Shown piece by piece: positions 6,125 through 59,008 of a stretch of 64,000 bases of DNA. Positions within the stretch are counted from its first letter, which is position 1. Every line of letters starts with the position of its first letter. The stretch lies in NCBI GenBank assembly GCA_000092065.1, contig CP000591.1; one strand, 5' to 3'. The stretch is from Ostreococcus lucimarinus. Lineage: Eukaryota. Made by a program: the position numbers and the translations under genes. The notes under the pieces were generated by a model that made no database searches, was not told where the DNA came from, and saw nothing but the letters and a program-made list of their open reading frames with translations.

Positions 6125-8581
6125 TTACAATCCCTCGCGATTCTTCGCTTGGTCATCCTCTTCTAGCGCCACGAGCGTGGCGTCCACGAGTCTCTCGAGG
6201 ACTTGGGATAGACGCGCGATGCGCCCGCCTTGCTCCGCGTTCTCCTTGACGGCGCTCGGCAACGTCTCCACCGTTTCCGCGATTTTCGTCGCCAGCGAGC
6301 TGATTTTCGATTCTATGATGGTTCGAATCGCTTTGCGTTCGCGCTCGAACGACGCGCACTTGGCCTCGAGCTGTTCGCATCTCGCGCTGGCGTCGTTTCG
6401 GCGTTGGGCGGTGAGCGCTTCCAATCGCAAGCGCACGTTATCGGCTTCAATCTCTTGTAAGGAATCTCGCTGCTCGTTGTTTTGCGTCTCAAGATACGCG
6501 ACTTTCGCACGCAGAAGTTTCAACTCCGACATCGCGTCGTCGCTTTTCCCGTTACCCGATTCCGATTCGCTTTCGCTCCCGACCCATCCGCCGAGCGCGG
6601 CGCGAAGACCGCCGCTCAACTGCGCGTGGAGTTGCGTCTCCTTCACCGCCGCGCGCTTGATACCGAATAGCTCCGCCGTTTTCGCATCTAGAGCATCCTC
6701 GAGTAGAGCTTTCTGCTCTTCGCACGCGCGAACTTGATCTTGCAATGCGTCGATGCGTTCGTCGCGTTCGCGCAGTCGAGCCGTGAGGCCGAGCATGATG
6801 TCGCGCTGCTTCAACAACACTCCCTTGTACCGTTCGACCTCGCGCGTGGAGTCACCAGCCTCGGCGCGCTCGGCTTCGATGCTTTTAAGCTTTCGCTCGT
6901 ATTCCGCGCGTATCGCAGCCACGCTCGAGGGGTCGTCGCCGCCGAGCAATTGACTCTGCATCTCGGAGATGCGCTTTTCTAAATTTCTCTTCTCTTGCTT
7001 TTCGATGAGAAATTCTTGCGATCGCATTTCGAGTTCGGTGATCGCGCGCAGCTTATCCGCCTCTGCGCGGCGTCGTTGCTCGTCCACCTCGAGTAATCGA
7101 CGTTTATCCACTAAATCTTTCGTACGTGTGTCCAACTCGGTGCGCAACTGCCTGAGCTCGCGCTCGTACTTGCGCAACAGCGACTTTTGATCTAAATCCT
7201 CATTCAGCGTCGCCGTATTCTTAATCTCCTTCGCACGACTGGCGAATTTCAACGTCGACAGCGACTCCGCGAAAGCTTCGAGCGCGGGCGAAACCATGGC
7301 GATGACGGTGGTTATGCAGTTACCGCCGAGTGAATCTTCCAAAATGCGCGTCAATTTGGAATCACGATACGGAATGTGCGATCGACCTTTGCTATCCGTC
7401 AAGGCGCTGATGACGTTGCCGAGCGCGCTCAGGCTTTGATTAATCTTTTTACTCTCGTCCAGCCGTTTTCCCGTGGCCCCGGTTAACGACACGCGCTCAG
7501 ATCCCGCCAAATCAACCAAGTTAAGTTTACCGACGGTGATGCTCTGTCGCTGCGCCGGAGCGCCCTCACCCACGTCCACACCGTCCACAGGTTCGTCATC
7601 CTCGGTCGTGCTGTGTTCTATGATGATGGTGAATACGGCGTGCGATCGCGACGAGAGCTCGTTCATCTTCGTCGACCCCGTCGCTCGAAGTTGCGCCCCG
7701 CGCTCGAGCAAACCGTAAATTTCACTCGGCGTCCGCACGACCCATTCCGATTGACCTTCCACGAACACGCCGCGCTTCTTGTCCTCGCGAATGTTCAAAT
7801 TCGTTCTCTCGGGTTTCAACAAATCGCTCACCGTCTCGTTGTAAATCTGCAAGTAACTCACGCGCACGAGATACTTTGACCGCGCGTGCGAGTCCTTGGC
7901 GATGTAATCGAAGATGTCCTCAATCGCGCGCGGAATGATCCCCCTTTCGCGCCCATCCGTCACCGGCGCGTTCCCCGGCAACCCAAACCGCTGTTGTCCA
8001 TACGCCAACATCGTTCCTCGATCACCCTCCATCGTGTACGTCTTCCCCGTCCCCGTCTGTCCGTACGCCAACACCGTGGCGTTGTATCCTCGCAGCGCGT
8101 TCAGCGTCGCCGGCTTCGCGCTTCTCGCGTACACCTCCTCCTGCGTCGCCCTCTCGTCGTACACCGCGTCGAATCCAAACTCATACGTCCTCTGTCGTTC
8201 GTGCGCGCCGTCATCCGCGAACGTCCCTCCCTCCCCGTTCCCCGCGAGCGCTCGCTCGCCGCCCGCGCTCGCCGCGCACGCCTTCCCGCCGCGCGTCGCC
8301 GCCACCGCGCGTTGATACGCCCCTCGCCCCTCGCGCGTCTCTCGCCGCAGCGCGGGTCGCACGCGTATCATCACCTCCACGTTCGACGTCGACGTCGACG
8401 TCCCTCGCGCCGCGTCGTCGTCCCCCGTCGCGCGTCGGTTCGAACGCGCGGCGTCGGCATCCGCATCCGCATCCGCATCCGCATCCGCATCGTCGTCGTC
8501 GTCGTCGTCGCGCGCGTCGTCGTCGCGATTCCGATCTCGCGCGTCGTCGAGCGCGCGACGCTCGACGTCGAGGGCGTCCAT
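6125..8581 (-). CDS. Kinesin motor protein: N-terminal motor domain and long coiled-coil tail
   Basis: Motor-domain motifs IRVRP, P-loop GQTGTGKT, SSRSHAVF and DLAGSE, followed by a coiled-coil tail. The start is taken at MDALDVE (ATG 8579-8581). The track ORF reads on through the upstream tandem repeat to 8947. Confidence 0.85.
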   Translation of the reverse strand: MDALDVERRALDDARDRNRDDDARDDDDDDDADADADADADADAARSNRRATGDDDAARGTSTSTSNVEVMIRVRPALRRETREGRGAYQRAVAATRGGKACAASAGGERALAGNGEGGTFADDGAHERQRTYEFGFDAVYDERATQEEVYARSAKPATLNALRGYNATVLAYGQTGTGKTYTMEGDRGTMLAYGQQRFGLPGNAPVTDGRERGIIPRAIEDIFDYIAKDSHARSKYLVRVSYLQIYNETVSDLLKPERTNLNIREDKKRGVFVEGQSEWVVRTPSEIYGLLERGAQLRATGSTKMNELSSRSHAVFTIIIEHSTTEDDEPVDGVDVGEGAPAQRQSITVGKLNLVDLAGSERVSLTGATGKRLDESKKINQSLSALGNVISALTDSKGRSHIPYRDSKLTRILEDSLGGNCITTVIAMVSPALEAFAESLSTLKFASRAKEIKNTATLNEDLDQKSLLRKYERELRQLRTELDTRTKDLVDKRRLLEVDEQRRRAEADKLRAITELEMRSQEFLIEKQEKRNLEKRISEMQSQLLGGDDPSSVAAIRAEYERKLKSIEAERAEAGDSTREVERYKGVLLKQRDIMLGLTARLRERDERIDALQDQVRACEEQKALLEDALDAKTAELFGIKRAAVKETQLHAQLSGGLRAALGGWVGSESESESGNGKSDDAMSELKLLRAKVAYLETQNNEQRDSLQEIEADNVRLRLEALTAQRRNDASARCEQLEAKCASFERERKAIRTIIESKISSLATKIAETVETLPSAVKENAEQGGRIARLSQVLERLVDATLVALEEDDQAKNREGL
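8457..8510. repeat. Compound microsatellite (gcatcc)6 then (gtc)n, inside the kinesin N-terminus; encodes a (DA)n/poly-D tract
   Basis: Read directly from the sequence. Confidence 0.85.
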
Positions 8582-8619
8582 CGCGCGCGCGCCGCGCGGC
8601 GCCGTGCCGCTGTGCCGCG

Positions 8620-8900
8620 CGCGACGGCCGACCGACCGACCGACCGACCGACCGACTGGTGTACAAACAGTGACACGCGAAATAACCATCGCCGCGACGC
8701 CACTGATGGGAATCTTCACGTATCGAAGAGCCGACCGACCGACTGGTGTACAAACAGTGACACGCGAAATACCCATCGCCGCGACGCCACTGATGGGAAT
8801 CTTCACGTATCGAAGAGCCGACCGACCGACTGGTGTACAAACAGTGACACGCGAAATAACCATCGCCGCGACGCCACTGATGGGAATCTTCACGTAATGA
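8620..8900. repeat. (ccga)n microsatellite followed by three near-identical 102-bp tandem repeats, in the kinesin/AsnRS divergent promoter
   Basis: The unit ccgaccgaccgactggtgtacaaacagtgacacgcgaaata[a/c]ccatcgccgcgacgccactgatgggaatcttcacgtatcgaagag repeats at ~8625, ~8727 and ~8829 with one or two SNPs. It is AT-richer than the surrounding coding DNA. Confidence 0.85.
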
Positions 8901-8945
8901 AGAGCCGCCGCCGGCACACCCCGACGCCGCGCGCGCGCGAGCGCC

Positions 8946-10637
8946 ATGGCGGACGCCCTTGCCTCGACGCTCGACGGCCTGACGCTCGACGGCGCGAGGC
9001 ACAGGTACTCGAAGATCTACGACCGCGTCCCGATCGAAAGCGTGCTCGCGACGGCGGAAAAAGACGCGATCGGACGGACGATCGTCGTCGGTGGCTGGGT
9101 GAAGACGGGACGCGAGGCGGAGCGAGGCGCGCTGCTGTTTCTCGCGGTGAACGACGGGAGCGGACCGGGAAACCTGCAGGTGGTGGTGAAATCCGAGACG
9201 TACGCCGAGCTGGGGGAGCTGAAGACGACGGGGACGAGCGTGGTGATCGAGGGCGAGCTGCGGGCGCCGCCGGAGAGCGCGAAGGGGCAGGCGATCGAGA
9301 TGCACGCGACGAGGGTGCTGATGGTCGGAAAGTGCGACGGCGCGACGTATCCGATCGCGAAGAAGAAGCAGACGCTGGAGTTCCTGCGGGAGAAGATTCA
9401 TCTGCGACCGAGGACGAACACGATCGCGAGCGTGGCGCGGGTGCGGAGCGCGCTCGCGTACGCGACGCATACGTTTTTTAACCAAAATGGGTTCTTGTAC
9501 GTGCACACGCCGTGCGTGACGCAGAGCGATTGCGAGGGAGCGGGAGAGATGTTTCAAGTGACGACGTTGCTGAGCGAGGCGGAGAAGCCGGAGGCGTTAG
9601 AGGCGACGGTGAAGCCGGAGGAGATTGAGGCAAAGCGCGCCGAGGTTTCCGCGTGCGGCGGAGAGATCAAGTCGATGAAGGAGAGTGGGGCGGATTCCAA
9701 GGAGGTGAAGAAGGCGGTGAAGACGTTAGATAAACTCAAGCAAGAGCTGTCGCAGATGGAATCGGCGGCGCGCAAGATTGGCGGGATTCAACGCGCCGAA
9801 GACGGTTCCATCGATTACTCCCGCGATTTCTTTGGCGGCAAGTCGTACTTGACCGTTTCCGGGCAGTTACAGGTGGAAACGTACGCGTGTGCGCTCTCTA
9901 ACGTGTACACTTTCGGTCCGACGTTCCGTGCGGAGAACTCGAACACCACCAGACACTTGGCTGAGTTCTGGATGATTGAACCCGAGCTCGCGTTTGCCGA
10001 CTTGAACGACGACATGCAGTGCGCGGAGGATTACGTCAGGTTCTGCTGCAACTACCTCCTCGAGAACTGCTACGGCGACTTGGAATTCTTTGCCAAGATG
10101 TACGACAGCACGTGCATCGATCGCGTGAAGGAAATTGCGACAACGCCGTTTGGTCGCGTCTCGTACACCGAAGCCATCGATCTCTTGGAAAAAGCCGTCG
10201 CCGACGGCAAGGAGTTCGTCTACCCAGTCTCTTGGGGTATCGACTTGGCCACCGAACACGAGCGCTGGCTCGCCGAGGAACACTTCAAGAAACCCGTGAT
10301 CGTTTACAACTACCCGAAGGACATCAAGGCTTTCTACATGCGCTTGAACGACGACAACAAAACCGTCGCCGCGATGGACGTCTTGGTGCCAAAGGTTGGC
10401 GAACTCATCGGCGGTAGTCAACGCGAGGAGCGATTGGACGTGTTGGAACGCCGAATGGTGGAATGTGACCTCGTGCCGGAAGAATATTCTTGGTACTTGG
10501 ACCTGCGTCGTTACGGCACCGTCACCCACGCCGGTTTCGGCCTCGGCTTTGAACGCCTGATTCTTTTGTGCACCGGGATGGAGAATATTCGCGACGTCAT
10601 TCCGTACCCGCGCTGGCCGAACAACTGCATTAGTTGA
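8946..10637 (+). CDS. Asparaginyl-tRNA synthetase (class IIb)
   Basis: Motif 2 FRAENSNTTRHLAEFWMIEPELAF and motif 3 GGSQREER...GFGLGFERL. An OB-fold N-terminal domain is present. A ~65-aa Lys/Glu-rich insertion between motifs 1 and 2 contains a WHEP-like helix. Confidence 0.9.
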   Translation: MADALASTLDGLTLDGARHRYSKIYDRVPIESVLATAEKDAIGRTIVVGGWVKTGREAERGALLFLAVNDGSGPGNLQVVVKSETYAELGELKTTGTSVVIEGELRAPPESAKGQAIEMHATRVLMVGKCDGATYPIAKKKQTLEFLREKIHLRPRTNTIASVARVRSALAYATHTFFNQNGFLYVHTPCVTQSDCEGAGEMFQVTTLLSEAEKPEALEATVKPEEIEAKRAEVSACGGEIKSMKESGADSKEVKKAVKTLDKLKQELSQMESAARKIGGIQRAEDGSIDYSRDFFGGKSYLTVSGQLQVETYACALSNVYTFGPTFRAENSNTTRHLAEFWMIEPELAFADLNDDMQCAEDYVRFCCNYLLENCYGDLEFFAKMYDSTCIDRVKEIATTPFGRVSYTEAIDLLEKAVADGKEFVYPVSWGIDLATEHERWLAEEHFKKPVIVYNYPKDIKAFYMRLNDDNKTVAAMDVLVPKVGELIGGSQREERLDVLERRMVECDLVPEEYSWYLDLRRYGTVTHAGFGLGFERLILLCTGMENIRDVIPYPRWPNNCIS

Positions 10638-11460: not shown

Positions 11461-14400
11461 TTATTGCAGTCTGAGGTCGGTGAAATCATCGGCGACGACG
11501 TCGACGGATGGAGCGGCGGAAGCGCTCGTGTGATGAATCACTGGGAGTGGTGCTGACGTCGCGAACGACGGGGCGAGGAGGGCGGGGTCGATGGTGGGCG
11601 GGCGAGGGATTGCGCCGGCGGGCGGCGGATGCGACGATTCGGATGCCGAGGCTTCGTAACCGTAAAATCCATCTTGCGAGGCGGTTCGTTCGTGTGCGGC
11701 GTACGACGCCGACGATTGACTCTCGCTGGATTCATTCCGGGAGTGCGCGGAATGGGCCGGCGCGACGGCGGACGGCATGAAGAATTGCGCAGGAGCTTGC
11801 GCGCACGCGCCGGCGTTAGGCGCGACGGGGACGAAGCCTTGAGGGGCGACAGTCGGCGTCGAAGTCGTGCTGAACGTCGACACATAACGCGTGTGTACGC
11901 CACCTTGCTGTTTTGCGTGCGTGCTTGGCGCCATGACTGGAGGCGGACCTGCAATTTCACTCGCCGCGCTTTGTTCTGATCGAAGCGGCGGAGCACCCAC
12001 GGGTGGGGCCTCTTTCGGTGGTGCTCGTCCTCTCTCGAGCCACATCTTGCGCTCGTCGTCGTAATAGAAGACATTCTCTTGGCTCATTGTCGGCTCGTTC
12101 GCGGGCTGAGGCTTTGGCGCAACGCCGCCGAAGAGGGACGACATCGATCGTAACAAGTTGCCCGAGGGCGTGCGCTCGTGGCGCGCCACGTGCGCCGGCG
12201 GCGGTTGCACGACCGGTGCAGCTTGTGAGTGCGCCGACGAAAGTGTGTGGTGCATTTGCACGGGCTGCTGCTGATACGCATCCGGTGGCGTGTGCGGTCG
12301 CGGCTCGTGCGGTGGACCCAGCGGCGAGGCTTGAAATTCACCGCCGTCGCCGAATAGGGAGCTGACGCTTCGATCGAGCAAGCCTTTGACGCCGCTCACC
12401 AACACCTTGGCAGCGCCAGCTGCGGCGTCAGCTAATCTGCCAGTTTTTCCGCGTAAACTATTGTGTAACCGATCTTCCATCTGCGCCGCCAACATTCCCA
12501 CGAGGGCGCCGTTCACTTCGGGAGAATTTCTATCCAGAGAACGAACGCTCTTCAACACAGACTCTACGTACGCCAGCGCTGGTTTCAATTTACCAACCTC
12601 AGCTAAAGCTCCGGCGTATAAGAGCTTGTAAGGCAACAGAGATGGAAGTTGCGCTTGTGGATTCGAACCTAACACCGCGAGTTCGAAAATCTCGGTGAGG
12701 TGCACGGCACGAGGCGTGACGTACGTCCTCGGGAACTTGCGATGATCCGCGCCGATGAGACACAACCGCGAATTGAATGAATACGGCGTCGGACGTTGCT
12801 TTGACAGTGCGTAGGCAACATGCGCGGCCGTGATGTCATTCTGACACCAGAGCTCGTCGCCGAGCGCTTTGAGCACGAAATCACTCCCTTTTGCTGGGTT
12901 TGAACAAAGAATAGCGATGTGCTCGCGCCATCTCGGGAGAAGTTCTCGAATTTGGGAAACTTCCGGCACTTGCATCCCGTGCACGTTCGGTGCAGCCTCG
13001 ACACCGCTTGTCGTGAGCTCTTGGGGTATCCCAGCCATGACTACTTCGAGCGTGTGGAGCGGCGAACCGACTCGGCACACGCTCTTTGCCATGATGGAGA
13101 CCGTTTCGTGATAGTGACGACCGCCCATGTGGCTGGCGAGAAGAAGCGCGTGTGGCCATAATTTCGCCGCTACAGCGGCCTGCAGCGCCTCACCGCGCCG
13201 ACCGGCGATGAGGAGATTCTCTATTTGCACGATTTGTTGCGCGTCGCCTTCGCCCGACGGATTCAGCGGCGACGCCGCGACGTTTGCCGACACCCAACCA
13301 CCGTCCGAGGCTGCCTGAGCGTCACCGGCGAGCACGGATGCAAGCTCGGCGACAGCGCCTTTTCTATTTTCGCCTAACAAATCACCAGGGGTTGAAATCT
13401 CACCCTTATGTCGTAACATCGTCTGTAACACGCGATATAATGTCACTTCGCTCTGTTGCCGTTCTCCCCCGGACGAGAGCGCCGAGTCCATCATCTTTGT
13501 CACGTCGGCTTGTCGTCGATTTCCCAACGGCCCGTCGAACGCCTCCATCGATCGTACGTAAGACATACCGAGTGTGTTACCATCCTTTAACATGGATCCA
13601 ACCGAATGCACGCGCAAGCTACAAGGTGGTATGCTCGTTCCGTGACTGATTCTACCGCCAGGATACCCAGGCCCGCTCAGTATGAGCGAGCCGCCAAAAC
13701 CGAAACTCATCGCCACGTGCTGCGGGCGGCCGTGCGGAGAACGATCAGTGTCGTCATAATTTGCGGGTTTGAGCGTCTCTGTTTCACTATATGCTGCATA
13801 CTCGAGCTGTTGCGTGGAGTGCGCCTCGTAAGACGGCGCATAGCCGCCATGATTCGCGCTCGGCGCAGGCACAGGCGGATACTCTGGCTGTGCCACGCGA
13901 GCGGGCTCGTACGTGTCGTAGCCCGCGCTCGCGCGAGGTGGTGGCGTAAATGGTACGGGCGACGCTGAAGCCAATGCATGCGGCACGGCATGCACGTACG
14001 CCATCGGGGAGTCTTCAATCGGCGTCGGCACCATGAACGTCGGCTTCGGCGGCGTCTGCGGCGGCGCCTGCATATCGGAGACGGAATTCGACGAGGACAC
14101 ACGGCTGTGCAAATTCTCGGAAGAATACGCCGGCACTATCGGTGGTGCGCTCAGGTCCGCGGTGACGTCGTTTTCTCGATAGTCTGCGTACGCTGATCTA
14201 GGCGGCTCTCGCAGTTCAAGCGCGCGATTCGGCTGGTCTTCGTGCGAAGCGCTCGCGAGCGGTTGGGAAAATCCCTGTCGCGCGTACTGTTCCGGAGCAT
14301 GTTGCTCGTACGCAGTGGCGTGAGCGTGTGACGTCATCCCCATCCCGAAGTCATCGCTCGTTTCGCGCTCGCCGACGAACTCTGCTTGCGGATACTCAGC

Positions 14401-15201
14401 CGCCGGCGCGTGCGTTTCCTCGTAAAACGCACGATCCGGCGCCGAATCCGTCGGCGCGAAGCTCGTCGCCTCGATAACTGGCGCGCGCGCCTCGGCCGCG
14501 ACGCTCGCGATCTCGTTCGCCTCCGCCACGTTCTCGCTCGCCGCGTACGTTTCGCGCGCCGGCGCCTCCGCCGCCCCGCTCGCCCGCGCCTCGAACGGAA
14601 TCACCGCCGGCGCGCTCACCGTCTCCTCCGCCGCGTCTAAATCGTCAAAGAATCCCATCCCATCGTCCCGCGACGCCGCGGGCGACGCGAACGGCGCGTT
14701 CGTCGCGTACGTCGCCGCCGCCGTCGCCGTCGCCGCCGCGCGAACCGCCCCCGCCGACGCCTCCGCCCCCGCCGACGCCGACGCCGACGCGCCGACCTCC
14801 CCCCCCCCCCCCGTCGGCGTCAACCAATCGTCGTCGCCCTCGCACCCCCCGAACAGCGCCCCCAAGTCGCCGTTCGCGACTTCCACGAACCCCGTCGGCG
14901 CGTCCTCGCGCGCGCGCGGCGTCGTCGGCGTCGTCGCGAACGCCGCCTCCTCCCGTCGCGTCGGCGTCGTCGCGCGCTCGCCCATCGTCGGCGTCGCGAC
15001 GCCGAACGGTCCGCGCGTCGTCGTCGTCGTCGCGTCGTCGCGCGCCGCGCCGTCGTCGCGCCGCGCGTCGTCGCCGCACGTCGTCGTCGCGACCGCGCGC
15101 TCGCCCGTCGTCGTCGCCTCGCGCGACGCCTCCGCGTCCGCGCGGCGCGGCGCCGGCGCGACGTCGTCGAGCCACGCGTCGTCGCTGTCCGACGACGCCA
15201 T
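11461..15201 (-). CDS. Sec16-like COPII/ER-exit-site scaffold protein: large Pro/Ser/Ala-rich disordered protein with a central conserved helical domain
   Basis: Central block ...IENLLIAGRRGEALQAAVAAKLWPHALLLASHMGGRHYHETV...LLYAGALAE... resembles the Sec16 central conserved (ACE1) domain, flanked by long low-complexity regions. The start is taken at MASSDSDD (ATG 15199-15201). The further upstream ORF is antisense to the U2AF-like RS-domain coding sequence. Confidence 0.5.
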   Translation of the reverse strand: MASSDSDDAWLDDVAPAPRRADAEASREATTTGERAVATTTCGDDARRDDGAARDDATTTTTRGPFGVATPTMGERATTPTRREEAAFATTPTTPRAREDAPTGFVEVANGDLGALFGGCEGDDDWLTPTGGGGEVGASASASAGAEASAGAVRAAATATAAATYATNAPFASPAASRDDGMGFFDDLDAAEETVSAPAVIPFEARASGAAEAPARETYAASENVAEANEIASVAAEARAPVIEATSFAPTDSAPDRAFYEETHAPAAEYPQAEFVGERETSDDFGMGMTSHAHATAYEQHAPEQYARQGFSQPLASASHEDQPNRALELREPPRSAYADYRENDVTADLSAPPIVPAYSSENLHSRVSSSNSVSDMQAPPQTPPKPTFMVPTPIEDSPMAYVHAVPHALASASPVPFTPPPRASAGYDTYEPARVAQPEYPPVPAPSANHGGYAPSYEAHSTQQLEYAAYSETETLKPANYDDTDRSPHGRPQHVAMSFGFGGSLILSGPGYPGGRISHGTSIPPCSLRVHSVGSMLKDGNTLGMSYVRSMEAFDGPLGNRRQADVTKMMDSALSSGGERQQSEVTLYRVLQTMLRHKGEISTPGDLLGENRKGAVAELASVLAGDAQAASDGGWVSANVAASPLNPSGEGDAQQIVQIENLLIAGRRGEALQAAVAAKLWPHALLLASHMGGRHYHETVSIMAKSVCRVGSPLHTLEVVMAGIPQELTTSGVEAAPNVHGMQVPEVSQIRELLPRWREHIAILCSNPAKGSDFVLKALGDELWCQNDITAAHVAYALSKQRPTPYSFNSRLCLIGADHRKFPRTYVTPRAVHLTEIFELAVLGSNPQAQLPSLLPYKLLYAGALAEVGKLKPALAYVESVLKSVRSLDRNSPEVNGALVGMLAAQMEDRLHNSLRGKTGRLADAAAGAAKVLVSGVKGLLDRSVSSLFGDGGEFQASPLGPPHEPRPHTPPDAYQQQPVQMHHTLSSAHSQAAPVVQPPPAHVARHERTPSGNLLRSMSSLFGGVAPKPQPANEPTMSQENVFYYDDERKMWLERGRAPPKEAPPVGAPPLRSEQSAASEIAGPPPVMAPSTHAKQQGGVHTRYVSTFSTTSTPTVAPQGFVPVAPNAGACAQAPAQFFMPSAVAPAHSAHSRNESSESQSSASYAAHERTASQDGFYGYEASASESSHPPPAGAIPRPPTIDPALLAPSFATSAPLPVIHHTSASAAPSVDVVADDFTDLRLQ
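14799..14812. repeat. C14 homopolymer (G14 on the coding strand) inside the Sec16-like CDS; encodes a GGGG stretch
   Basis: Read directly from the sequence. Confidence 0.9.
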
Positions 15202-19247: not shown

Positions 19248-19491
19248 ATGACGTCCGCGTCGATGGTATCGACGCTCGCGGCGCGCGCGAGAGCGAACGT
19301 CGCGCTCGCGGTCGTCGCGATCGCGATCGCACTCGCGTTGTTCCCGCTGCTCGCGCCGCTCGCGCTGGGCGGTTTCGTCGTCGCGCGCGCGGTGCGCAGG
19401 GACGCGCGCGAGGAAGAGGACGTTTCGGTGAAGCCCGTCGCGGGGACGGGCGGGGACGTCGCGGTGCGAGAGAGGGCGCGGGTGGAGGTTG

Positions 19492-19551
<60 letters not shown>

Positions 19552-22133
19552 CGGTGGCGCTCACGGGCTCGGCGGCGATGCTGGCGAAGATGCGGAAGAG
19601 CAGCGCGTTGACTGGAGAAAAACGCGCGACCGCGGCGCAGGGTGCGAGCACGAGCGCGAAGGATGGTGTGGATGAGACGGCGACGAACGCGAAAGCGACC
19701 CGAACGTTTATATTGCACGGCGGCGAAGCGGCGTCGCAAATCGCGAAGGATTTGGCCGCGCAGGCGGAGAAAGAGCACGGAATTGCGTTGAATGTGATGA
19801 CAATGGATGATTTCAGAGACGTAGAGTTCGATAAAGAACCCTGCGCGGTGGTTTTCGTGGTCGAGACGGTAGAGAACGCGCAGCCGGCGGAAGCTGCGGG
19901 ATCTTGCGTGCGCTTCTTCAATCGGAAACGTAAGGAAGGGACGAATCAGGCTATGCTGGCGGGGAAGATGTCATACGCGGTTTTAGGACTCGGTGATACA
20001 AACTTGTTACTCGATCGCCAGACGACGACGGCGAAAGATTGTAACCAGGCTGCGCAGACGTTGGATTCGGCGCTCGCCGCTCTCGGCGGCGCTCGAATCG
20101 TCCCCCGCGGCGAGGCAAACGACGCCGTGGGTTTGGACGAAGACGTTGTACCGTGGGCCAAGTTGCTTTTCCCAAAATTGTCTGAAGTTCACAAAGGGAT
20201 TGAGGCGAAAAAAAACGCAAAGCTATGCTTCTTGTACGGCTCGCAGACCGGTAACGCGACGGAAATTTGCAAAAATCTCGCCGCCGAGGCGAGCGAGAAG
20301 GGGTACCCCGTGGAGGTGTGCGCGATGAATGAGGTCGAGCCAGAAGATGTCATCAAACCTGGCGCTGTGATTACGTTCGTCGTATCCAGCACCGGCGACG
20401 GTGACGCTCCGGATAACTGCGACACATTCTTCACTCGCCTCAAGCGCAAGGCAAAGAAGGAAAAAGGCGAGGGCGCCATCGGCGTCCAGTACGCCGTCCT
20501 AGGACTGGGTGATCAAAACTACAGCGCGTTCATGGCTGTGCCGCGTCAGTTCTCGCAAACGATGGAGAACTTGGGCGCGAAGTGTTTCGCTAAGCGCGGT
20601 GAATGCGACGACACACTTGGTTTGTACGAACAAGTTGACGCATGGACGAGCACGTTTTGGTCTCATCTCGAAGTCGCTCGAGGAAACTCACACAAGTTGC
20701 GCGAGGGTGAGACAATCGTGGAAGACGCTAATGCCGCCACTGAAGCTCCAAAAGGCGATTCGAAGCCACCGCAAGCGGCTGCGCCGGCGAAGAAAGTCGA
20801 AGGCGTGCCACCACTACCAATCTGCCGATCTGAAGTGCAGTGGCTGCCGAAAACGACAGAAGTGGTTGCTAATCGCGTCGCGCCCGGTCCAGATTCCGAA
20901 GGTGCATACACCGTCTCCTCGCCGTACATGGCGACTATTCACAAGCGTGAGGTACTCACAAACTTGAAATCCGATCGGCGAGTGTTGCACATGGAGTTTG
21001 ATCTCGGATCAAGTGGGATCTCTTACAAGCCGGGAGATTCCATTGGCATCGTACCGCAGAACGACGCCGAGCTGGTTCGAGCCATCGTCGATCGGCTGGG
21101 TCTCGATCAAGCCGCCATTTTCACGCTGAATTGGAAGAAAGGTGACACGAATGAACACGCGACTCATCCGTTGCCGCATATTCACACCCCGTGCACGGTA
21201 AAGAGTGTGTTCACGAATTATATCGACATCACGGGATGTCCGCGTAAGTCGCTCCTTCGCGTTCTCGCCGAACACTGCGGCAACGCGGAGGAAAAAGACG
21301 CCCTCTTGCACCTTTCATCGCGTGGTGGTCGAGCAGAATACGAAACACAGATTCGCGCGCAGTCACCGACGCTATTGACGCTCTTGAACAATTATCCGAG
21401 TTGTTGTCCTCCGTTAGCCGAGCTTTTAGATGCCCTCTCTCCGCTCGCGCCGAGACTGTATTCGATCACATGCGCGCCCGAGGTGGCACCAACAACGCCG
21501 TCGGTTGCCTTCAGTGTCGTGCGGTTCCAGGTACCCAGCGGTGAACATCGCCTCGGCGTCGCCACGAACTGGCTCGACGAGATATCGGTCGACGACAAGT
21601 GCGAGCACAAAGTCCCGGTGTACATCAAGCCAAGCTTGAAGTTCGGCCTGCCCGAAGACTCGAGCGCGCCGCTAGTGATGATTGGTCCGGGTACCGGCGT
21701 CGCACCATTCCGCGGTTTCCTCCAGTCCAGACGCGCTAAAGCACAAAAAGGCGGTCGATTATCTGAAGCTATGTTGTTCTTCGGCTGTCGCAAGGCAGAT
21801 GAGGACTTCCTGTACGAAGCCGACTGGAAGAGTTTCACCGCCGATGGCTCGCTGACAAAGCTCGTCTGCGCCTTTAGCCGCGAGACCGCAGAAAAGGTAT
21901 ACGTGCAGCACAAAATTGAAGAGCACGCCACCGAAGTCGCGCGCTTAATCTCTGAGGGCGCTTACGTCATGGTATGCGGCGACGGCGCGCACATGGCCAA
22001 GGATGTCCACGCCGCCCTCGTCCGCGTCGTCGCTCAAGCCGGCGTCTGCGGCGTCTCTGACGTCAAAGCCGCCGAGGCTCTCCTCGCCGACTTCACTAAA
22101 TCCGGTCGTTACGTCCGTGATATTTGGAGCTAA
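19248..22133 (+). CDS. NADPH-dependent diflavin oxidoreductase (CPR/MTRR/NDOR1 family) with an N-terminal TM anchor, poly-Thr tract and two tandem flavodoxin-like domains
   Basis: Hydrophobic N-terminus VALAVVAIAIALALFPLLAPLALGGFVVA, then (T)16. The first Fld-like domain (FILHGGEAAS...YAVLGLGDTN) is degenerate. The second is canonical (FLYGSQTGNATE...YAVLGLGDQNY). The FAD/NADPH domain carries RLYSITCAP, GPGTGVAPFRGFLQSR and a C-terminal RYVRDIWS. Confidence 0.8.
19501..19550. repeat. (acg)16 trinucleotide repeat encoding poly-Thr in the reductase N-terminal region
   Basis: Read directly from the sequence. Confidence 0.9.
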
Positions 22134-32585: not shown

Positions 32586-35555
32586 CTAAGTTGATGTTGT
32601 TTGCGAGCGCACGCGCACGAGGTCTTTGATTTCTTTCACGAATGATGCGTTTGCGAGTAATTCTTCACACGCAACATGGATTCTGAACCGCCAGTAATGT
32701 TTGGGATTCGTTGGGTCGTTGATTGTTTCTTCCAGCGCTGGTCGCTTGGCGTATCGTTCGTCGAGCGCAAGAACGTCTTGAATCGGGAAAATAGCCAGCA
32801 CGCTCGGACTTTCGATGTGCTGGGTGAGAATTCGGCGCATCACACTCGGCGTGCACGCGTCGTCATTTCCGCACTGAAACATCTCGTCGTATCGCGCACG
32901 GCGTTCGGCGTCTTCTTCCCACCACGCTCGCGTGGTCATGGTGTCGTGACAAGAAGGCGAGCAAACCGTTAAGTATGAATACGTGTGCGGGCGACCGAAT
33001 TCTGAACTTTCGCCCACGGGAGGCATGCGCTGAATGCGTAAACCTAGAATACCAAGTTCATCCATCACAGGCGGCACGCACATCGGTGTGAAGCCGAGGT
33101 CTTCTCCACACACGAGCATTTCCGTCGATTTCAACAGCGCGGGTAACACTTTTCGTGCTTGCTTACGCCATGTGTTCGTTTGACGGCCGAAATAGTAATC
33201 GTTCGACAAATCTCTGAGCGCGTCTCGCATCCAGCCTTCGAGCGCTTGGAAAGACGTCGTCTCTTCGAGCCCGAACCGAGGATAGAAATGGTCGATATTC
33301 TCCACGTCTGTCAAGAGGCATCGGTTTTGAAACAGTTGCATCAATCCAGCGCGAACCAAGAGTTGTTCGTCGTTGAGATGCATCGGGAAATCTCCGCGAG
33401 GTTTCGTTGCGGCAAAAATAGCCTGTTCAGTGTCAAACTCACGTCTGAACTGCCATAATCCGCGCTGATCATCGACCTCGATCATGTATCGATACGCGAT
33501 TTCGTGCACGTTTTCTCCGAAAAGCACCTCTAACTCGTGCCATTGGATATAAGGCTGCGTCAGACGATTGAGATCCCACAACCCACGCGCCGCGAGCTCG
33601 TCGCGCGTGAGCGGTAGCGACGGCCTGAACCGACCCATGCGCCCAGTTGTAGCGCTCGCGGGAAGTTCCCATATTCGGAAGAATCCTAAGATATGATCGA
33701 TACGAATCGCGCTGAAGTACTGCTCCAAGTGTTGCATGCGAGCTCGCCACCAGGCGTAGTCGTCCTCAGCCATAGTTTCCCAGTTGTACGTCGGGAATCC
33801 CCAGTTCTGTCCGTTTGCATCAAAAGCATCGGGCGGCGCGCCCGTGGAAGTATCCATGCGGAACAAACGTGGGTGCATCCACGTATCGACGCTGCGTTTG
33901 TCCACGCCGACCGGAAGATCGCCTTTCAAAATGACACCCTTTGACTTGGCGTATTGCGCCGTCGTAACCAGTTGGGTGTGCAAATTGTACTGGAGGTAAA
34001 AAAAGAATCGTGTCGACTCGTACAAATCGCCTCCCGGGCAATCAATCTTGTCCAAAATTTCTTTCGAGAACGTGGCGAACACACCCCAACGCCAATGTTC
34101 AGCCGTACCGAACAAATCTCGAAGTACGCAAAAGACGCCGTACGGTCGCAGCCACGATTCATTGGCTTTATAAAACGTTTGAAAATCATCAGACGCGAGA
34201 ACCTTTTCGCCGTCGGTATAATAGGCTCGACGCGCGAACGAAAGTTTCTCCTTTACCGTTGCCTCGTAGTCGATCTCTTTCAAGTCCAACGCCACGCGCG
34301 CGGCTTCGATTTCCTCCGCGAGTTCCGCCGTGACGCCGGATAGCTCTTGCACGCGCAGATACATGACGTGAAGCGCGTGCACGGAGAGCGACGAGTACGG
34401 ATAAGAGTCCCAAAAAGTGCCGTACACGCACGTGTCATTTACCGGCAACACCTGCACCACGGACATCCCAGTCGTCGACGCAAAGTCCACCATTTGACGC
34501 AAATCCACAAAGTCGCCGCACCCGACGCTCTGCGCCGTGCGCACGGAGAAGACGGGAAGCGCCATTCCCGAACCTTTCCAAACCCCGCCGTGGGTGAAGA
34601 CGCCATCGCGATGAATCAATCGTCTTTCTACCGCGTTTGCGACGTCCCCGTCGTCGCTCAGCGAACACTCTCGCGCGCCTCGAGCGTCCTCCACGACGTC
34701 GTCGCCGTCCCGAAGGGCGTACGAGTACTCAAACGGCAACTCGGACGCGTCTACTTGGAACTCGATCGTCCACACGTCCGTTCCCGCGCGTTTGCCGAGC
34801 GAGCGCTCACTTTTCAAAGCCGCGCACGACCCACGCACGACGACGCGCTGGGATTTCGTCGCACGAGGCGCCTTAATCTCCAACCGCACGTCTACTCCGG
34901 CGCGCCCGCGCTTCGCCGGCGTCGTCTCCCCATTCGTCTCGCACCGATCTCCCACGACTTCGTGCGCCAAATCCCCGCGTCCCACGTACTCCGGCGTCAC
35001 CACGCTCGCGAACGCCTTGCGTTCGAACACGTGCTCCGCCGTGGCGCGCGAATTCCACTCGTCCGCGCACTCCACGCCTCGCTCGCCGCGCGTCCCGCGC
35101 CCGTCCTCCAACTCCAACGTCCGCACCTCCCCGTCCCACGCGATCACGTGTTCGCGCTCGTCGATCACCGCGTACCTATACTCGATCGTCCTCCTCCCGT
35201 TCGCGCTTTTCCCGCTCCCGAGCCCTCCGTCCTCCGCGCGCGTCTCCGCTCGCCACTCGAGCTCGCGTTCGCCGCGTCCCGCCCGACACCGCATCCGCAG
35301 CCCTCTCGCCGGGTTCCATCGTCCCAGCGCCGCGTCCGCGCCGCACACCACGAGATTCTCCCCCCAATTCGTCCAGTACGACGTTCGAAACGCGATCGTC
35401 GTCCCATCGCGCGCGCGCGTCGCCGTCGCGCCCGACGCCGTTAATCCGTCCGCGTCCTCGTCGGCGTCTTCGCGCCGTCGTTCCGTCGTCACCGTCGCGA
35501 GCGTCGCGTCGAGCGCGCGCGCGAGCGATGCGACGTCGTTCGGCGCGTCTCTCAT
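32586..35555 (-). CDS. DPE2: 4-alpha-glucanotransferase, DPE2-type (GH77) with two N-terminal CBM20 starch-binding domains
   Basis: GH77 motifs RIDHILGFFRIWELP and LVCGEDLGFTPMCV. The tandem CBM20-like N-terminal domains (TIAFRTSYWTNWGENLVVCG...; VRLEIKAPRATKSQRVVVRGSCAAL...WTIEFQV) and an insertion in the catalytic domain fit DPE2. The start ATG was verified at 35553-35555. Confidence 0.85.
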   Translation of the reverse strand: MRDAPNDVASLARALDATLATVTTERRREDADEDADGLTASGATATRARDGTTIAFRTSYWTNWGENLVVCGADAALGRWNPARGLRMRCRAGRGERELEWRAETRAEDGGLGSGKSANGRRTIEYRYAVIDEREHVIAWDGEVRTLELEDGRGTRGERGVECADEWNSRATAEHVFERKAFASVVTPEYVGRGDLAHEVVGDRCETNGETTPAKRGRAGVDVRLEIKAPRATKSQRVVVRGSCAALKSERSLGKRAGTDVWTIEFQVDASELPFEYSYALRDGDDVVEDARGARECSLSDDGDVANAVERRLIHRDGVFTHGGVWKGSGMALPVFSVRTAQSVGCGDFVDLRQMVDFASTTGMSVVQVLPVNDTCVYGTFWDSYPYSSLSVHALHVMYLRVQELSGVTAELAEEIEAARVALDLKEIDYEATVKEKLSFARRAYYTDGEKVLASDDFQTFYKANESWLRPYGVFCVLRDLFGTAEHWRWGVFATFSKEILDKIDCPGGDLYESTRFFFYLQYNLHTQLVTTAQYAKSKGVILKGDLPVGVDKRSVDTWMHPRLFRMDTSTGAPPDAFDANGQNWGFPTYNWETMAEDDYAWWRARMQHLEQYFSAIRIDHILGFFRIWELPASATTGRMGRFRPSLPLTRDELAARGLWDLNRLTQPYIQWHELEVLFGENVHEIAYRYMIEVDDQRGLWQFRREFDTEQAIFAATKPRGDFPMHLNDEQLLVRAGLMQLFQNRCLLTDVENIDHFYPRFGLEETTSFQALEGWMRDALRDLSNDYYFGRQTNTWRKQARKVLPALLKSTEMLVCGEDLGFTPMCVPPVMDELGILGLRIQRMPPVGESSEFGRPHTYSYLTVCSPSCHDTMTTRAWWEEDAERRARYDEMFQCGNDDACTPSVMRRILTQHIESPSVLAIFPIQDVLALDERYAKRPALEETINDPTNPKHYWRFRIHVACEELLANASFVKEIKDLVRVRSQTTST

Positions 35556-55735: not shown

Positions 55736-58700
55736 TTACAACTTTGACTTCTTCCCGTCCTTTTCCTTCTTCTCCTTCTTCTCTTTCTTCTCTTTCTTCG
55801 CCTTCTTCGCCTTCTTCTCTTTCTTAAATTCATGCGTTTTACGCTTTTTGTCTTTCACCTCAGCCTCTGGCGCGTCTTCGTCCGCTTCGGAATCCTCGAA
55901 GACCACTTTTTTGCCTTGCGAGTCGCCGCCGCCTTGCTCCATCCAATCGATCGCCGTGTGATCGCTCGTGGAGTCGAGTGGTGAACTTATAGCTTCAGTT
56001 TCGATCAAATCATCTAGCCCTCTCGGATCAGATGCATTTTGAGCGCCGATACCCTTCTCCCGAAGCACTCGAAGCGTCTTTTGCATGTCAAATTCAGCTT
56101 CTCGTTGCGCTTTGCGCGCGGGCTGCAGCGCGAGCGGACTGTGCATCTCTTTCGCCTTTTCGCGCGATCCAACCACCATTCGTGATGAACGACTGAGCAT
56201 TTTTTGCTCAAATATCGGTAGAGCAAAGTCAAATCCAGAGTTTGGGCCGTGCTTTCGTACTCCATCAACCAAGGTGTCGGCAAGAAGGACGGCGTCACTC
56301 ATGGCTTGATTCGCACCTTGCGCCTTGAATGGAGTCATCGGGTGAGCGGCGTCACCAATCAACGTGACGCGACGCTTTGATTCATCAGTAGGGCGGAGTA
56401 ATACCGGATCGAGCAATTCCCTGTCGTACACTGGGTAGCCCGACATACAATCCAGCGGCGTGTTGCGAAGCAAATCTGGAACAGGGTCATGCCACTGCGC
56501 ACAACGCCGAACTATTTCCTCCTTTAGCGTCGTCGCATCTTTCGTGTATTGACGCGCTGTTTCTTCAGAGCATGGAAAAGATAGCTGCCACATAGTCGAA
56601 GTAGTCGTGAAGGGCATGGCATACAACCGTGTGGCGCCGTCGACCGTCTCAAAAATACGTCGATGCGCGAGCGGTACGTTCATTATCTTCTCATCCACGA
56701 TTCCTAGCACGACACACAATCCAACATAGTTCAGACGATCTCCTGGGAGGTCTAAATGACGTCGCACGGTTGAGAATATCCCGTCCGACCCCACGAGTAG
56801 AGCTCCATCGAGCTCGGTACCATCCGTGGACGCGACGGAGACTCCATTTTCGCGAGCCACAAAGCTCTTGAGCTTGCTATTCCAGCGAATAGTTCCCGGT
56901 TGCACAGCTTCGATGATGCGAGATCGAAGCACTTGACGGGGTATATGAATGAATCGTCCAGAATTTTGCACCTCGCGACGTTCACGCGACTTTGCTCCAA
57001 AAGCCTCTCCGAAAAATCCAATAATGTGCCCCTCTGCGTCAAAGGTGTAATGTGACGTCGAAGGAGCATCGTCTTGAGATATGTCAACGCCCATGGCTTG
57101 TATAGCGTCTTGGGCTTGCACAGTGAGCCCATATCCTTGAGCGCGCGCGTCAAAGCTTTCATCTGACTCCAACACGATGACATCGAATCCTTTGCTCTGC
57201 AATGCCACGGCTGCCGCCGCGCCTCCTATGCCCCCACCAGCGATTATAACTCGTCCACATTTCGAAACGTCGACGGGAGGACCGTATTTTTCATTGTTCG
57301 CGCCGTGTCGTTGCTGCTTGAGATGCTTCACCACACTATGCTGTCCAGCCGTCGTAAACGCCCACTCCAAATTGTTCAACTCTTCATCACTGAACTCATC
57401 CATGAGTCTCTTCACTGATCGAGCCAGCGCGGTAAACAACGCATCGTTTACTTGTCCGGAGTTTGCAAACGTCCAAGCGACGTTAACCAGATCTTGAGCG
57501 TTGAAATTATCCGCTTGGTGCTCGGCCGCGGATGCCAATGCGACAAAGAGAGCCTCGCTGAGTTGGCTTGCTTGGTCAAACGTCCAAACTATGTTGGCGA
57601 TATTCGGCGCATCTAAATCGTTCAGTCGATGATCCAATATCGATTTTCGCGCTGCAACAAAAAGTTTGGCATCATATCGACCGAGTTTTGCAAACGCCCA
57701 CGTGGTATTCACGAGGTCTTGGGTGTTGAAATCAGCCAAGCACCGTTCTGACAGGCTCGCCAACGAAGTGAATAACTTTTCGTCGTGATGACACGCCTTC
57801 CCGAAAGCCCAGGCGGTATTGGCAATATCCTGAGAATTAAACTCACTCGCATTCGCGGTCATTCTGCGCTCGATAGAACGACCGAACTTGGAAAAAAGTT
57901 CGGCGTCCAGATGCCCACATTTGGAAAAAGACCAAACCGTGTTCGTCAAGCCTTGCGCGTTCAAGGCGCTCAGGTGCCGCTCTGCGTGCTTGGCGAGCGT
58001 CGTAAACAATTTTGCGTCGTATTGTCCCGCCTTAGCGAACGCGTAGATGAGATTTGAAAAGTCTTGCGCGTTGAAATCATCCAAGCGTTCTTGCGCCTTC
58101 TGCGACATTGCGCGAAACAAACCAACGTCGACAAAGCCCGACTTTGCGAACCCCCAAGCCGTGTTCGACAAACCTTGCGTGTTGAACTCCCCCAAACGTC
58201 TCTCCACACACCGCGCCAGAGCTTTAAACAGCCTCGCGTCGGCGTGTCCCACCGAGGCGAACGCCCAGCAAGTATTCGTGAGCTCTTGCGAATTAAATCG
58301 CTCCGCGTGTCGCTCCGCCATCCTCGCCAACGCGCTAAACAATCGTTCACACTTGTAATCCGCCTTGGCGAACGCCCACGCAATGTTCGCCAACTCTTGC
58401 CCTCGATCGATCCCTCCCAAGTGTCGCTCTATCGCCTTCGCGAGCGCGGCGAACAACTCCTCGCTCCCTCCTCCCTTGGCCGCGCCGTGCGCCACGTTCG
58501 CCAGCTCCCGTCCCCCCATCTTCGATCGCTCATCCCTCACGAATTCGATCGTGTGCGCGATCAATCGTTCGTGCGCATCATTCATCCCGTCCCCATCGCT
58601 CGAGCTCGCCCGTTCACCGTCGCATCGCATCCGTCCGACGCTCGTCCACACCGCCGACAGGTGAATGTGATTCATCCGTCCCGCGCTCTCGTCTCGCAGC

Positions 58701-59008
58701 GCGTACACCTCGCGCAACGATCGCGCGTTCTTCACGTTCGCCGTCAGCAACGCCGGCGAGGGCGCGTTCCCGCGTCTCGCTCCTCCGCTCCCCCCCGTCG
58801 TCGTTCCCATCGTCGTCATCGCGTTCGTTTTCCTCGCCGCCGGCGCCGGCGTCGCGCCCAGTCCGCACGCCGCCCGCGCGTCCGCGCGCGACATCCCTCC
58901 GACCTCGAGCGCGCGCGCGCGCGCCTTCGCGCGCTCCTTCTTCCCCATCTTCTTTTTCTTCGCCGTCGCCGTCGTCGTCGCGTCGCCGTCGCCGTCGCCG
59001 TCGCCCAT
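55736..59008 (-). CDS. Fusion protein: ~12 OPR/HPR (FAST-kinase-like) repeats followed by a FAD-dependent monooxygenase domain and a Lys-rich tail
   Basis: The repeats are ~38 aa, of type FN[ST]Q[ED]L[TS]NTxWAFAKxGxxDxxLFxALA. In the same ORF come the FAD-binding GRVIIAGGGIGGAAAAVALQSKGFDVIVLE, RVTLIGDAAHPMTPFKAQGANQAMSDA and a C-terminal KKEKKAKKAKKEKKEKK. There is no stop codon between the repeat array and the monooxygenase domain. ATG at 59006-59008. Confidence 0.7.
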   Translation of the reverse strand: MGDGDGDGDATTTATAKKKKMGKKERAKARARALEVGGMSRADARAACGLGATPAPAARKTNAMTTMGTTTGGSGGARRGNAPSPALLTANVKNARSLREVYALRDESAGRMNHIHLSAVWTSVGRMRCDGERASSSDGDGMNDAHERLIAHTIEFVRDERSKMGGRELANVAHGAAKGGGSEELFAALAKAIERHLGGIDRGQELANIAWAFAKADYKCERLFSALARMAERHAERFNSQELTNTCWAFASVGHADARLFKALARCVERRLGEFNTQGLSNTAWGFAKSGFVDVGLFRAMSQKAQERLDDFNAQDFSNLIYAFAKAGQYDAKLFTTLAKHAERHLSALNAQGLTNTVWSFSKCGHLDAELFSKFGRSIERRMTANASEFNSQDIANTAWAFGKACHHDEKLFTSLASLSERCLADFNTQDLVNTTWAFAKLGRYDAKLFVAARKSILDHRLNDLDAPNIANIVWTFDQASQLSEALFVALASAAEHQADNFNAQDLVNVAWTFANSGQVNDALFTALARSVKRLMDEFSDEELNNLEWAFTTAGQHSVVKHLKQQRHGANNEKYGPPVDVSKCGRVIIAGGGIGGAAAAVALQSKGFDVIVLESDESFDARAQGYGLTVQAQDAIQAMGVDISQDDAPSTSHYTFDAEGHIIGFFGEAFGAKSRERREVQNSGRFIHIPRQVLRSRIIEAVQPGTIRWNSKLKSFVARENGVSVASTDGTELDGALLVGSDGIFSTVRRHLDLPGDRLNYVGLCVVLGIVDEKIMNVPLAHRRIFETVDGATRLYAMPFTTTSTMWQLSFPCSEETARQYTKDATTLKEEIVRRCAQWHDPVPDLLRNTPLDCMSGYPVYDRELLDPVLLRPTDESKRRVTLIGDAAHPMTPFKAQGANQAMSDAVLLADTLVDGVRKHGPNSGFDFALPIFEQKMLSRSSRMVVGSREKAKEMHSPLALQPARKAQREAEFDMQKTLRVLREKGIGAQNASDPRGLDDLIETEAISSPLDSTSDHTAIDWMEQGGGDSQGKKVVFEDSEADEDAPEAEVKDKKRKTHEFKKEKKAKKAKKEKKEKKEKKEKDGKKSKL

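Follow-up and report, generated by a model that had tools for sequence, protein, structure and literature searches.

Why does an asparaginyl-tRNA synthetase (AsnRS) of a green picoalga carry, in the middle of its catalytic domain, a long segment where bacterial enzymes have only a short one, and what might this segment do? The gene lies on a 64,000-nucleotide stretch of Ostreococcus lucimarinus DNA (assembly GCA_000092065.1, contig CP000591.1), which we refer to here as the window. An initial annotation, made from the letters of the window without database searches, had proposed that the segment contains a WHEP-like helix-turn-helix. We consider it highly probable that the insertion is indeed a WHEP-TRS domain and that it is a hallmark of plant-type cytosolic AsnRS.

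A 71-residue insertion between motifs 1 and 2 of a bacterial-type AsnRS

The AsnRS open reading frame (ORF) runs uninterrupted through 563 codons, with no introns. According to Pfam, it encodes an OB-fold (tRNA_anti-codon) and a class II D/K/N core (tRNA-synt_2), which is the domain composition of a class IIb synthetase. Among solved structures, the best match is the AsnRS of Elizabethkingia (6pqh; E value of 5e-138, and 1.5e-38 in a Foldseek search), which represents the nearest solved catalytic and anticodon-binding core, with about 42% identity in the structural alignment. The AsnRS proteins of Thermus and Pyrococcus follow, and only then do the opisthokont and parasite cytosolic enzymes appear, with E values of 1e-46 to 2e-55 for human, Brugia and Entamoeba AsnRS. 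Judged by these comparisons, the core of the algal enzyme is of the bacterial/organellar type and not of the opisthokont cytosolic type.

The phmmer alignment with 6pqh falls into two blocks, pairing residues 27 to 207 of the query with residues 11 to 187 of the chain and residues 279 to 561 with residues 191 to 488. Between these blocks, the 71 residues from 208 to 278 occupy the place of about three residues in 6pqh, between motif 1 and motif 2. Both flanks of the insertion can be aligned. On the upstream side, the stretch SDCEGAGEMFQVTT corresponds to 6pqh residues up to 187, and its residues D195, C196, E197, G198, A199, G200, E201, F203, T206 and T207 are invariant among 38 orthologs. On the downstream side, the loop GGIQRAEDGSIDYSRD aligns with 6pqh residues 191 to 206 ('nIPRNEDGAIDYTQDFFG'), both enzymes having a GxxRxEDGxIDYxxDFFG loop at this point. 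Counted from the end of GAGEMFQVTT (residue 207) to the start of FFGG (residue 295), the distance is 87 residues in the window protein, 19 in 6pqh and about 1 in Thermus AsnRS (5zg8). The initial estimate of about 85 residues versus about 20 in bacterial AsnRS was thus accurate, and the peptide quoted in support of it, EVSACGGEIKSMKESGADSKEVKKAVKTLDKLKQEL, maps to residues 232 to 267 (nucleotides 9639 to 9746), within the interval reported at the time (9530 to 9800).

Motif 2 (FRAENSNTTRHLAEFWMIEPE) and motif 3 (GFGLGFERL...IRDVIPYPR) are intact, and the catalytic residues are invariant across the 38 orthologs. We therefore conclude from the sequence that the protein is a working synthetase carrying an extra surface hairpin. 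An AlphaFold2 model of the whole protein has a mean predicted local distance difference test score (pLDDT) of 76.6 and recovers AsnRS structures in Foldseek searches; the OB-fold is modeled as beta strands with a pLDDT of about 90. The approximately 26 residues ahead of the conserved AsnRS core are acidic (MADALASTLDGLTLDG…), and this short acidic N terminus suggests that the protein has no transit peptide.

As the claim came from raw genomic DNA, the additional segment could in the abstract be an in-frame intron read as coding sequence or a mistake of the assembly. However, the segment is present in transcriptome-derived orthologs (MMETSP Pyramimonas, Hemiselmis, Rhodomonas and Chlamydomonas) and in an identical protein on three independent assemblies, which excludes such an artefact for all practical purposes. 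The amino acid sequence of the segment is moreover conserved and fits an established domain.

Evidence that the insertion is a WHEP-TRS domain

The gathering score of the Pfam WHEP-TRS profile (PF00458) is 32.5 bits. In the profile search that the initial annotation had suggested as a check, the isolated insert reached 33.4 to 33.6 bits (E = 4e-8), over this score. A scan of the whole protein gave 29.3 bits (E = 8.9e-7), with residues 232 to 272 corresponding to profile positions 3 to 43 of 53. The isolated insert thus passes the gathering score, and the whole protein falls just short of it; measured against this curated score, the PF00458 match is a borderline one, but it is clearly significant.

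A profile of the homologous inserts of the 38 orthologs (alignment A2) was searched against the sequences of all PDB chains. The best nine matches were all solved WHEP domains, namely, those of MetRS (2djv, E = 9.4e-12), HisRS (1x59, E = 1.1e-5) and EPRS (1d2d and 1fyj, E of about 2e-5) and further HisRS entries. Every match at E < 1e-3 was a WHEP domain, and the first unrelated protein appeared at an E value of 0.005. Lower in the list, the matches to GlyRS (5e-3) and TrpRS (0.02) were mixed with three de novo designed proteins (E values of 0.005 to 0.014). Taken individually, 26 of the 38 orthologous inserts matched PF00458 at E < 0.01. In the ortholog alignment, the conserved G238, V/I241, K245, V258, L261, K265, L268 and E272 fall on WHEP consensus positions, with G238, K245, L261, K265 and E272 being 90 to 100% conserved.

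The AlphaFold2 model agrees with these searches. The two predicted helices of the insert (Table 1) have pLDDT values of about 87 to 93, far above those of the junctions, and the same helix hairpin was obtained when the insert was modeled alone. In a Foldseek search of the PDB with the insert-only model, the MetRS WHEP (2djv) was the top match, with a root mean square deviation (rmsd) of 1.4 Å over 49 columns and 35% identity, and the HisRS and EPRS WHEPs were also among the matches. Pfam, the insert profile and the structure model thus all bear out the proposal of a WHEP-type helix-turn-helix inside the AsnRS catalytic domain.

Two results weigh against this identification. The whole-protein score lies slightly below the 32.5-bit gathering cutoff, and the Foldseek E value for the hairpin (0.44) is not significant, with many unrelated helical hairpins matching equally well. 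We ascribe the lack of significance to the simplicity of a two-helix hairpin fold, and we take the fold search to indicate consistency with a WHEP domain only and not as proof.

These weaknesses bear on the suggestion that the segment is a lineage-common, charged coiled-coil linker, rich in Ala, Lys and Glu, that resembles WHEP domains in composition without being homologous to them. The composition of the insert is indeed biased toward K, E and A, PF00458 fails in many core-chlorophyte, cryptophyte and SYNC2-like orthologs, and generic helical hairpins receive similar Foldseek scores. However, the window insert alone exceeds the Pfam gathering score, all insert-profile matches below 1e-3, led by that at 9.4e-12, are true WHEPs, and the position-specific conservation of G238, K245, L261, K265 and E272 tracks the WHEP consensus, which is not a compositional effect. 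We regard a nonhomologous linker as very improbable, the idea being largely refuted already. A related reading, a lineage-common low-complexity linker with no predicted helix-turn-helix, had been named by the initial annotation as fatal to its own proposal.

The hairpin could also be a convergent analogue, or a relative, of the N-terminal coiled-coil arm that SerRS uses to hold tRNA by its elbow or variable arm. Weak matches to the Pfam family Seryl_tRNA_N were observed (E values of 0.046 to 0.34), and SerRS arms are present among the Foldseek matches; three Pseudomonas SerRS entries reach a probability of 0.63 to 0.85 with an rmsd of about 1.1 Å, all SerRS matches having E values above 1.8. 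Nevertheless, the PF02403 scores of 11.6 to 14.4 bits are far under the 28.2-bit cutoff and place the insert outside that family, several of the SerRS structural matches have a low probability (0.2 to 0.28) and an rmsd of about 5 Å, and the WHEP sequence matches are better by orders of magnitude. A SerRS-like arm therefore appears to be extremely unlikely.

As a WHEP domain, the insert belongs to the same Pfam family as the WHEP repeats of EPRS (1FYJ and 1D2D) and the N-terminal WHEPs of HisRS, GlyRS and TrpRS, with which it shares the consensus G..V+.LK…K..V…V..LL.LK (profile E values of 1e-5 to 2e-2). It differs from them in its placement: these metazoan domains, which have noncanonical roles, are linkers or terminal appendages, and none is located inside a catalytic core.

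The insertion is common to green-lineage AsnRS and extends beyond it

In all of the 120 closest homologs, GAGEMF and LTVSGQL are separated by a segment of comparable length. Both anchors were matched in 115 homologs, 114 of which have a segment of 94 to 109 residues, the outlier being P0231 from a later search of representatives, with 152 residues; in the remaining 5 of the 120, the insert is present on direct reading. The homologs with the insert include Mamiellales (Bathycoccus among them), Pyramimonas, core chlorophytes, Chara, Closterium, Mesotaenium and land plants. In alignment A1, the window insert is in register, column by column, with the inserts of Selaginella, Arachis, Chara, Closterium and others. 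The comparison with algal and plant enzymes that had been recommended for dating the insertion thus places it at the same position in all green-lineage orthologs examined.

Among the closest known systems are Arabidopsis SYNC1 and SYNC3 (At5g56680 and At1g70980), which, like their land-plant orthologs, have the insertion at the same site. The distance from GAGEMF to LTVSGQL is 98 residues in the window protein and about 100 in land plants, and a PF00458 signature and a bacterial/organellar-type core are found in both. The overall identity of the window AsnRS is 59 to 62% to land-plant cytosolic AsnRS and 69% to the Bathycoccus enzyme. In contrast to its land-plant counterparts, the window gene is intronless and comes from a Mamiellales picoalga, and its lead-in lacks the 'NPPPSE' motif of the land-plant linker. 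No SYNC2-like divergent paralog was seen within the window. Core chlorophyte inserts have a turn that is 7 to 9 residues longer and have mostly lost the Pfam signal, whereas the turn of the window insert is short and canonical.

In a rough neighbor-joining tree, from which the insert columns had been left out, the window protein falls inside a Mamiellales clade with 100% bootstrap support. We infer from this placement, together with the 69% identity to the Bathycoccus enzyme and a GC content of 60%, that the gene is the Mamiellales (Ostreococcus-like) ortholog of plant-type AsnRS. The insert is not confined to the green lineage. Cryptophytes carry it at the same site, both in the Guillardia theta genome and in Hemiselmis and Rhodomonas transcriptomes (P0071 and P0189 to P0195), with a segment of 106 to 108 residues and the same helix-turn-helix with a longer turn; a Pfam scan of the Guillardia AsnRS gave no WHEP match. 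Cryptophytes cluster with prasinophytes in the same tree (75% bootstrap support), which hints at a green-algal source; the insertion may have been passed on by gene transfer.

A wider search used one representative per 50%-identity cluster. Most bacterial-type representatives with both anchors have roughly 13 to 50 residues at the insertion site. A third WHEP-bearing AsnRS clade, of metagenomic, eukaryote-like origin, comprises P0233 (Pfam E = 6e-8), P0249 and P0255 (1e-3) and lies outside the group of green and cryptophyte sequences in the tree. Since cryptophytes carry the insert, the designation "plant-specific" is slightly too narrow. The choanoflagellate Diaphanoeca grandis is represented by a transcriptome-derived plant-type AsnRS (P0232, 54% identity) with a K/E-rich segment of 98 residues at the site, in which scanning for a second or degenerate WHEP gave no match. 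Unrelated low-complexity or structured inserts of 55 to 180 residues occupy the same site in several representatives of other lineages; varied inserts were noted in P0232, P0242, P0246, P0248, P0251, P0257, P0259, P0271 and others. Such an assortment at one position indicates that the site is permissive, that is, an insertion hot spot of bacterial-type AsnRS.

This distribution also raises a bolder possibility, according to which the WHEP is an older or horizontally mobile feature and not plant-specific, the Diaphanoeca segment being a degenerate version of it, and serves as an essential cis-acting tRNA-capture arm, with whose help an AsnRS of bacterial type could take the place of the ancestral eukaryotic cytosolic enzyme; we consider this doubtful.

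The orthologs differ further at their N termini. Pyramimonas (P0027, P0035 and P0040) and Hemiselmis (P0071) have an additional extension of about 40 residues that is predicted to be helical (e.g., ELQLSELKTQLAQIQAGIDAKEAEVAGLR) and that the window protein lacks. The N-terminal extensions of the Pyramimonas and cryptophyte orthologs gave no Pfam match, and scanning them revealed no second or degenerate WHEP.

Possible origin and function of the AsnRS WHEP

We propose that the ancestor of green plants and algae gained a helix-turn-helix of roughly 50 residues together with a short linker, and that this gain took place in a hairpin whose first strand follows motif 1 (…GAGEMFQVTT) and whose second strand precedes motif 2 (…YLTVSGQL). 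The recipient would have been a class IIb AsnRS of bacterial or organellar derivation that serves the eukaryotic cytosol, and the acquired hairpin would project from the surface of the catalytic domain on flexible connections and act as an auxiliary binding arm. Because the lead-in (residues 208 to 223) is rich in Pro and acidic residues and the chain returns directly into the bacterial-type loop, the hairpin probably protrudes as a semi-independent arm. Taken as a whole, a plant-type cytosolic AsnRS WHEP on a bacterial- or organelle-derived enzyme, with an auxiliary arm as its proposed function, is likely to be the best explanation of the locus, and we hold it with good confidence.

What such an arm would bind is less clear-cut. 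Native eukaryotic class IIb synthetases possess a Lys-rich N-terminal tRNA-binding extension. Like the C-terminal WHEP of human MetRS, the arm could assist in tRNA capture or retention and in this way offset the absence of this extension from the window AsnRS; alternatively, the hairpin might dock a protein partner. The MetRS domain (2DJV) is the best match to the insert in both sequence and structure and is likewise a helix-turn-helix of about 50 residues. When it is deleted, the acceptor stem of tRNA is bound with a sharply higher dissociation constant (Kd; PMC8216282). With this domain as the closest solved relative, we favor an auxiliary tRNA-capture module, by analogy and tentatively, as a possibility falling somewhat short of even. 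The conserved basic positions of the insert (231, 242, 245, 255, 265, which is an invariant lysine, and 276) fit such a role.

Several observations weigh against tRNA capture. The WHEP core has a net charge of about -1 and an isoelectric point of 5.4, the mean net charge over the 38 orthologs being -0.8, and this acidic-to-neutral character offers weaker support for nonspecific RNA binding than is the case for Lys-rich WHEPs. The MetRS WHEP differs in this respect and in its setting: it forms a terminal appendage of a class I synthetase, with a Lys-rich tail after it, whereas the window WHEP is internal to a class II catalytic domain and has no such tail. At the insertion junctions (residues 188 to 209 and 295 to 311), the AlphaFold2 pLDDT falls below 50, so that the model is not a reliable guide to how the hairpin is placed with respect to tRNA. 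In addition, the published description of this domain attaches no established role to it (PMC7564348).

The neutral-to-acidic charge makes a protein-docking or regulatory role a serious rival. In that case, the hairpin would mainly mediate protein-protein interactions and have no part in tRNA binding, and its partner could be another synthetase, EF-1 or ribosomal factors, or a nontranslational protein. The WHEPs of TrpRS, HisRS and EPRS mediate protein interactions and noncanonical functions (PMC7564348 and PMC7373986), a domain of this charge is compatible with protein binding and RNA binding alike, and a noncanonical function is also favored by Saga et al. (PMC7564348). However, no partner is known for the AsnRS WHEP, the nearest solved WHEP by sequence is the tRNA-capturing domain of MetRS, and the domain has been kept in every green-lineage ortholog, those of streamlined picoalgae included, which points to a core housekeeping role. 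We therefore consider a mainly interactive function rather unlikely, and tRNA capture remains our preferred, if provisional, reading.

Relation to published work and existing annotation

The insertion has been described before. Saga et al. (2020, Genes 11:1056; PMC7564348) reported this WHEP insertion in plant cytosolic AsnRS, including Arabidopsis SYNC1 to SYNC3. They found it to be conserved among plants, presented it as the first WHEP seen in AsnRS and as the first case of one within a catalytic domain, and assigned plant cytosolic AsnRS an organellar origin. The initial annotation held that no WHEP was known to be inserted into the AsnRS active-site domain, a statement that is therefore outdated. 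PF00458 is also already precomputed in databases for P0001 (99% identical to the window protein), for the exact protein as it occurs on the three assemblies, and for many plant orthologs, and some GenBank entries bear the name "WHEP-TRS domain." The insert is thus real, was rightly interpreted, is already known and is ordinary for its lineage. Table 2 of AARS Online 2024 (PMC11580382) nevertheless does not list AsnRS among the WHEP-bearing families, which indicates that the AsnRS WHEP is underrecognized despite the 2020 paper.

With the feature published and the Pfam annotation already on the protein family, the locus carries little weight as a discovery. It does illustrate well how a domain that eukaryotes append to synthetases can come to lie within the catalytic core and not at one end of the protein, and a tiny, intron-poor picoalga with a single compact AsnRS gene would lend itself to experiments by deletion and complementation. 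The interest that remains lies in the function of the domain, in its wider-than-reported distribution (cryptophytes) and in its omission from the 2024 table.

Gene layout, codon usage and neighboring repeats

The positions of the AsnRS features are collected in Table 1.

Table 1. Features of the AsnRS gene and its insertion (nucleotide positions are those of the window)
Feature	Residues	Nucleotides	Strand	Evidence
AsnRS coding sequence, plant-type (bacterial-like) cytosolic, intronless	563 residues	8946..10637	+	ORF list, Pfam
OB-fold anticodon-binding domain, N-terminal	47-124	9084..9317	+	PF01336, E 1.1e-8, 35.3 bits, cutoff 27
End of motif-1 region, loop and strand SDCEGAGEMFQVTT, directly 5' of insertion point	194-207	9525..9566	+	
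Insert proper, 71 residues: acidic Pro-containing lead-in linker (208-223) and WHEP	208-278	9567..9779	+	
WHEP-TRS helix-turn-helix core	224-275	9615..9770	+	PF00458, AlphaFold2
WHEP helix 1	224-246	9615-9683	+	
WHEP turn, four residues	247-250	9684-9695	+	
WHEP helix 2	251-275	9696-9770	+	
Loop GGIQRAEDGSIDYSRD, common to bacterial-type AsnRS, outside WHEP insertion	279-294	9780..9827	+	Alignment to 6pqh
Remaining class II catalytic core	295-557	9828..10616	+	PF00152, residues 294-557, E 2.6e-61

The codon usage of the AsnRS gene switches near nucleotide 9795, just 3' of the insert. Upstream of this point, all 22 of the 22 Thr codons are ACG, while 9 of 15 are ACC downstream, and Leu codons change from CTG to TTG across the same switch. 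We considered a chimeric or recently converted gene and rejected it, as most long ORFs of the window show the same gradient: their first 600 to 900 nucleotides are rich in G at third codon positions (G3 of 0.5 to 0.7), and G3 is about 0.3 further downstream. Examples besides AsnRS are the ORFs at 19248-22133 (plus strand) and at 55736-59008, 11461-15201 and 32586-35555 (minus strand). Since G3 declines from 5' to 3' in nearly every long ORF of the window, the codon switch is unrelated to the insert; the gradient is genome-wide and not specific to AsnRS. It could be caused by transcription-associated mutation or by biased gene conversion near promoters.

In the intergenic region between AsnRS and a divergent kinesin-like gene, an 87-bp unit (CCGACCGACCGACTGGTGTACAAACAGTGACACGCGAAATAACCATCGCCGCGACGCCACTGATGGGAATCTTCACGTATCGAAGAG) occurs three times in tandem at 8644-8907, the copies being nearly perfect (97% matches). 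The array ends about 40 bp before the AsnRS ATG and is headed by a (CCGA)7 run at 8628-8656. The 87-bp unit may be a repeated promoter element. Two microsatellites, (GCATCC)x5.8 and (TCG)x13, lie at 8457-8549, within the 5' portion of the kinesin-like ORF on the minus strand (6125..8947), where they code for Asp/Ala-rich repeats.

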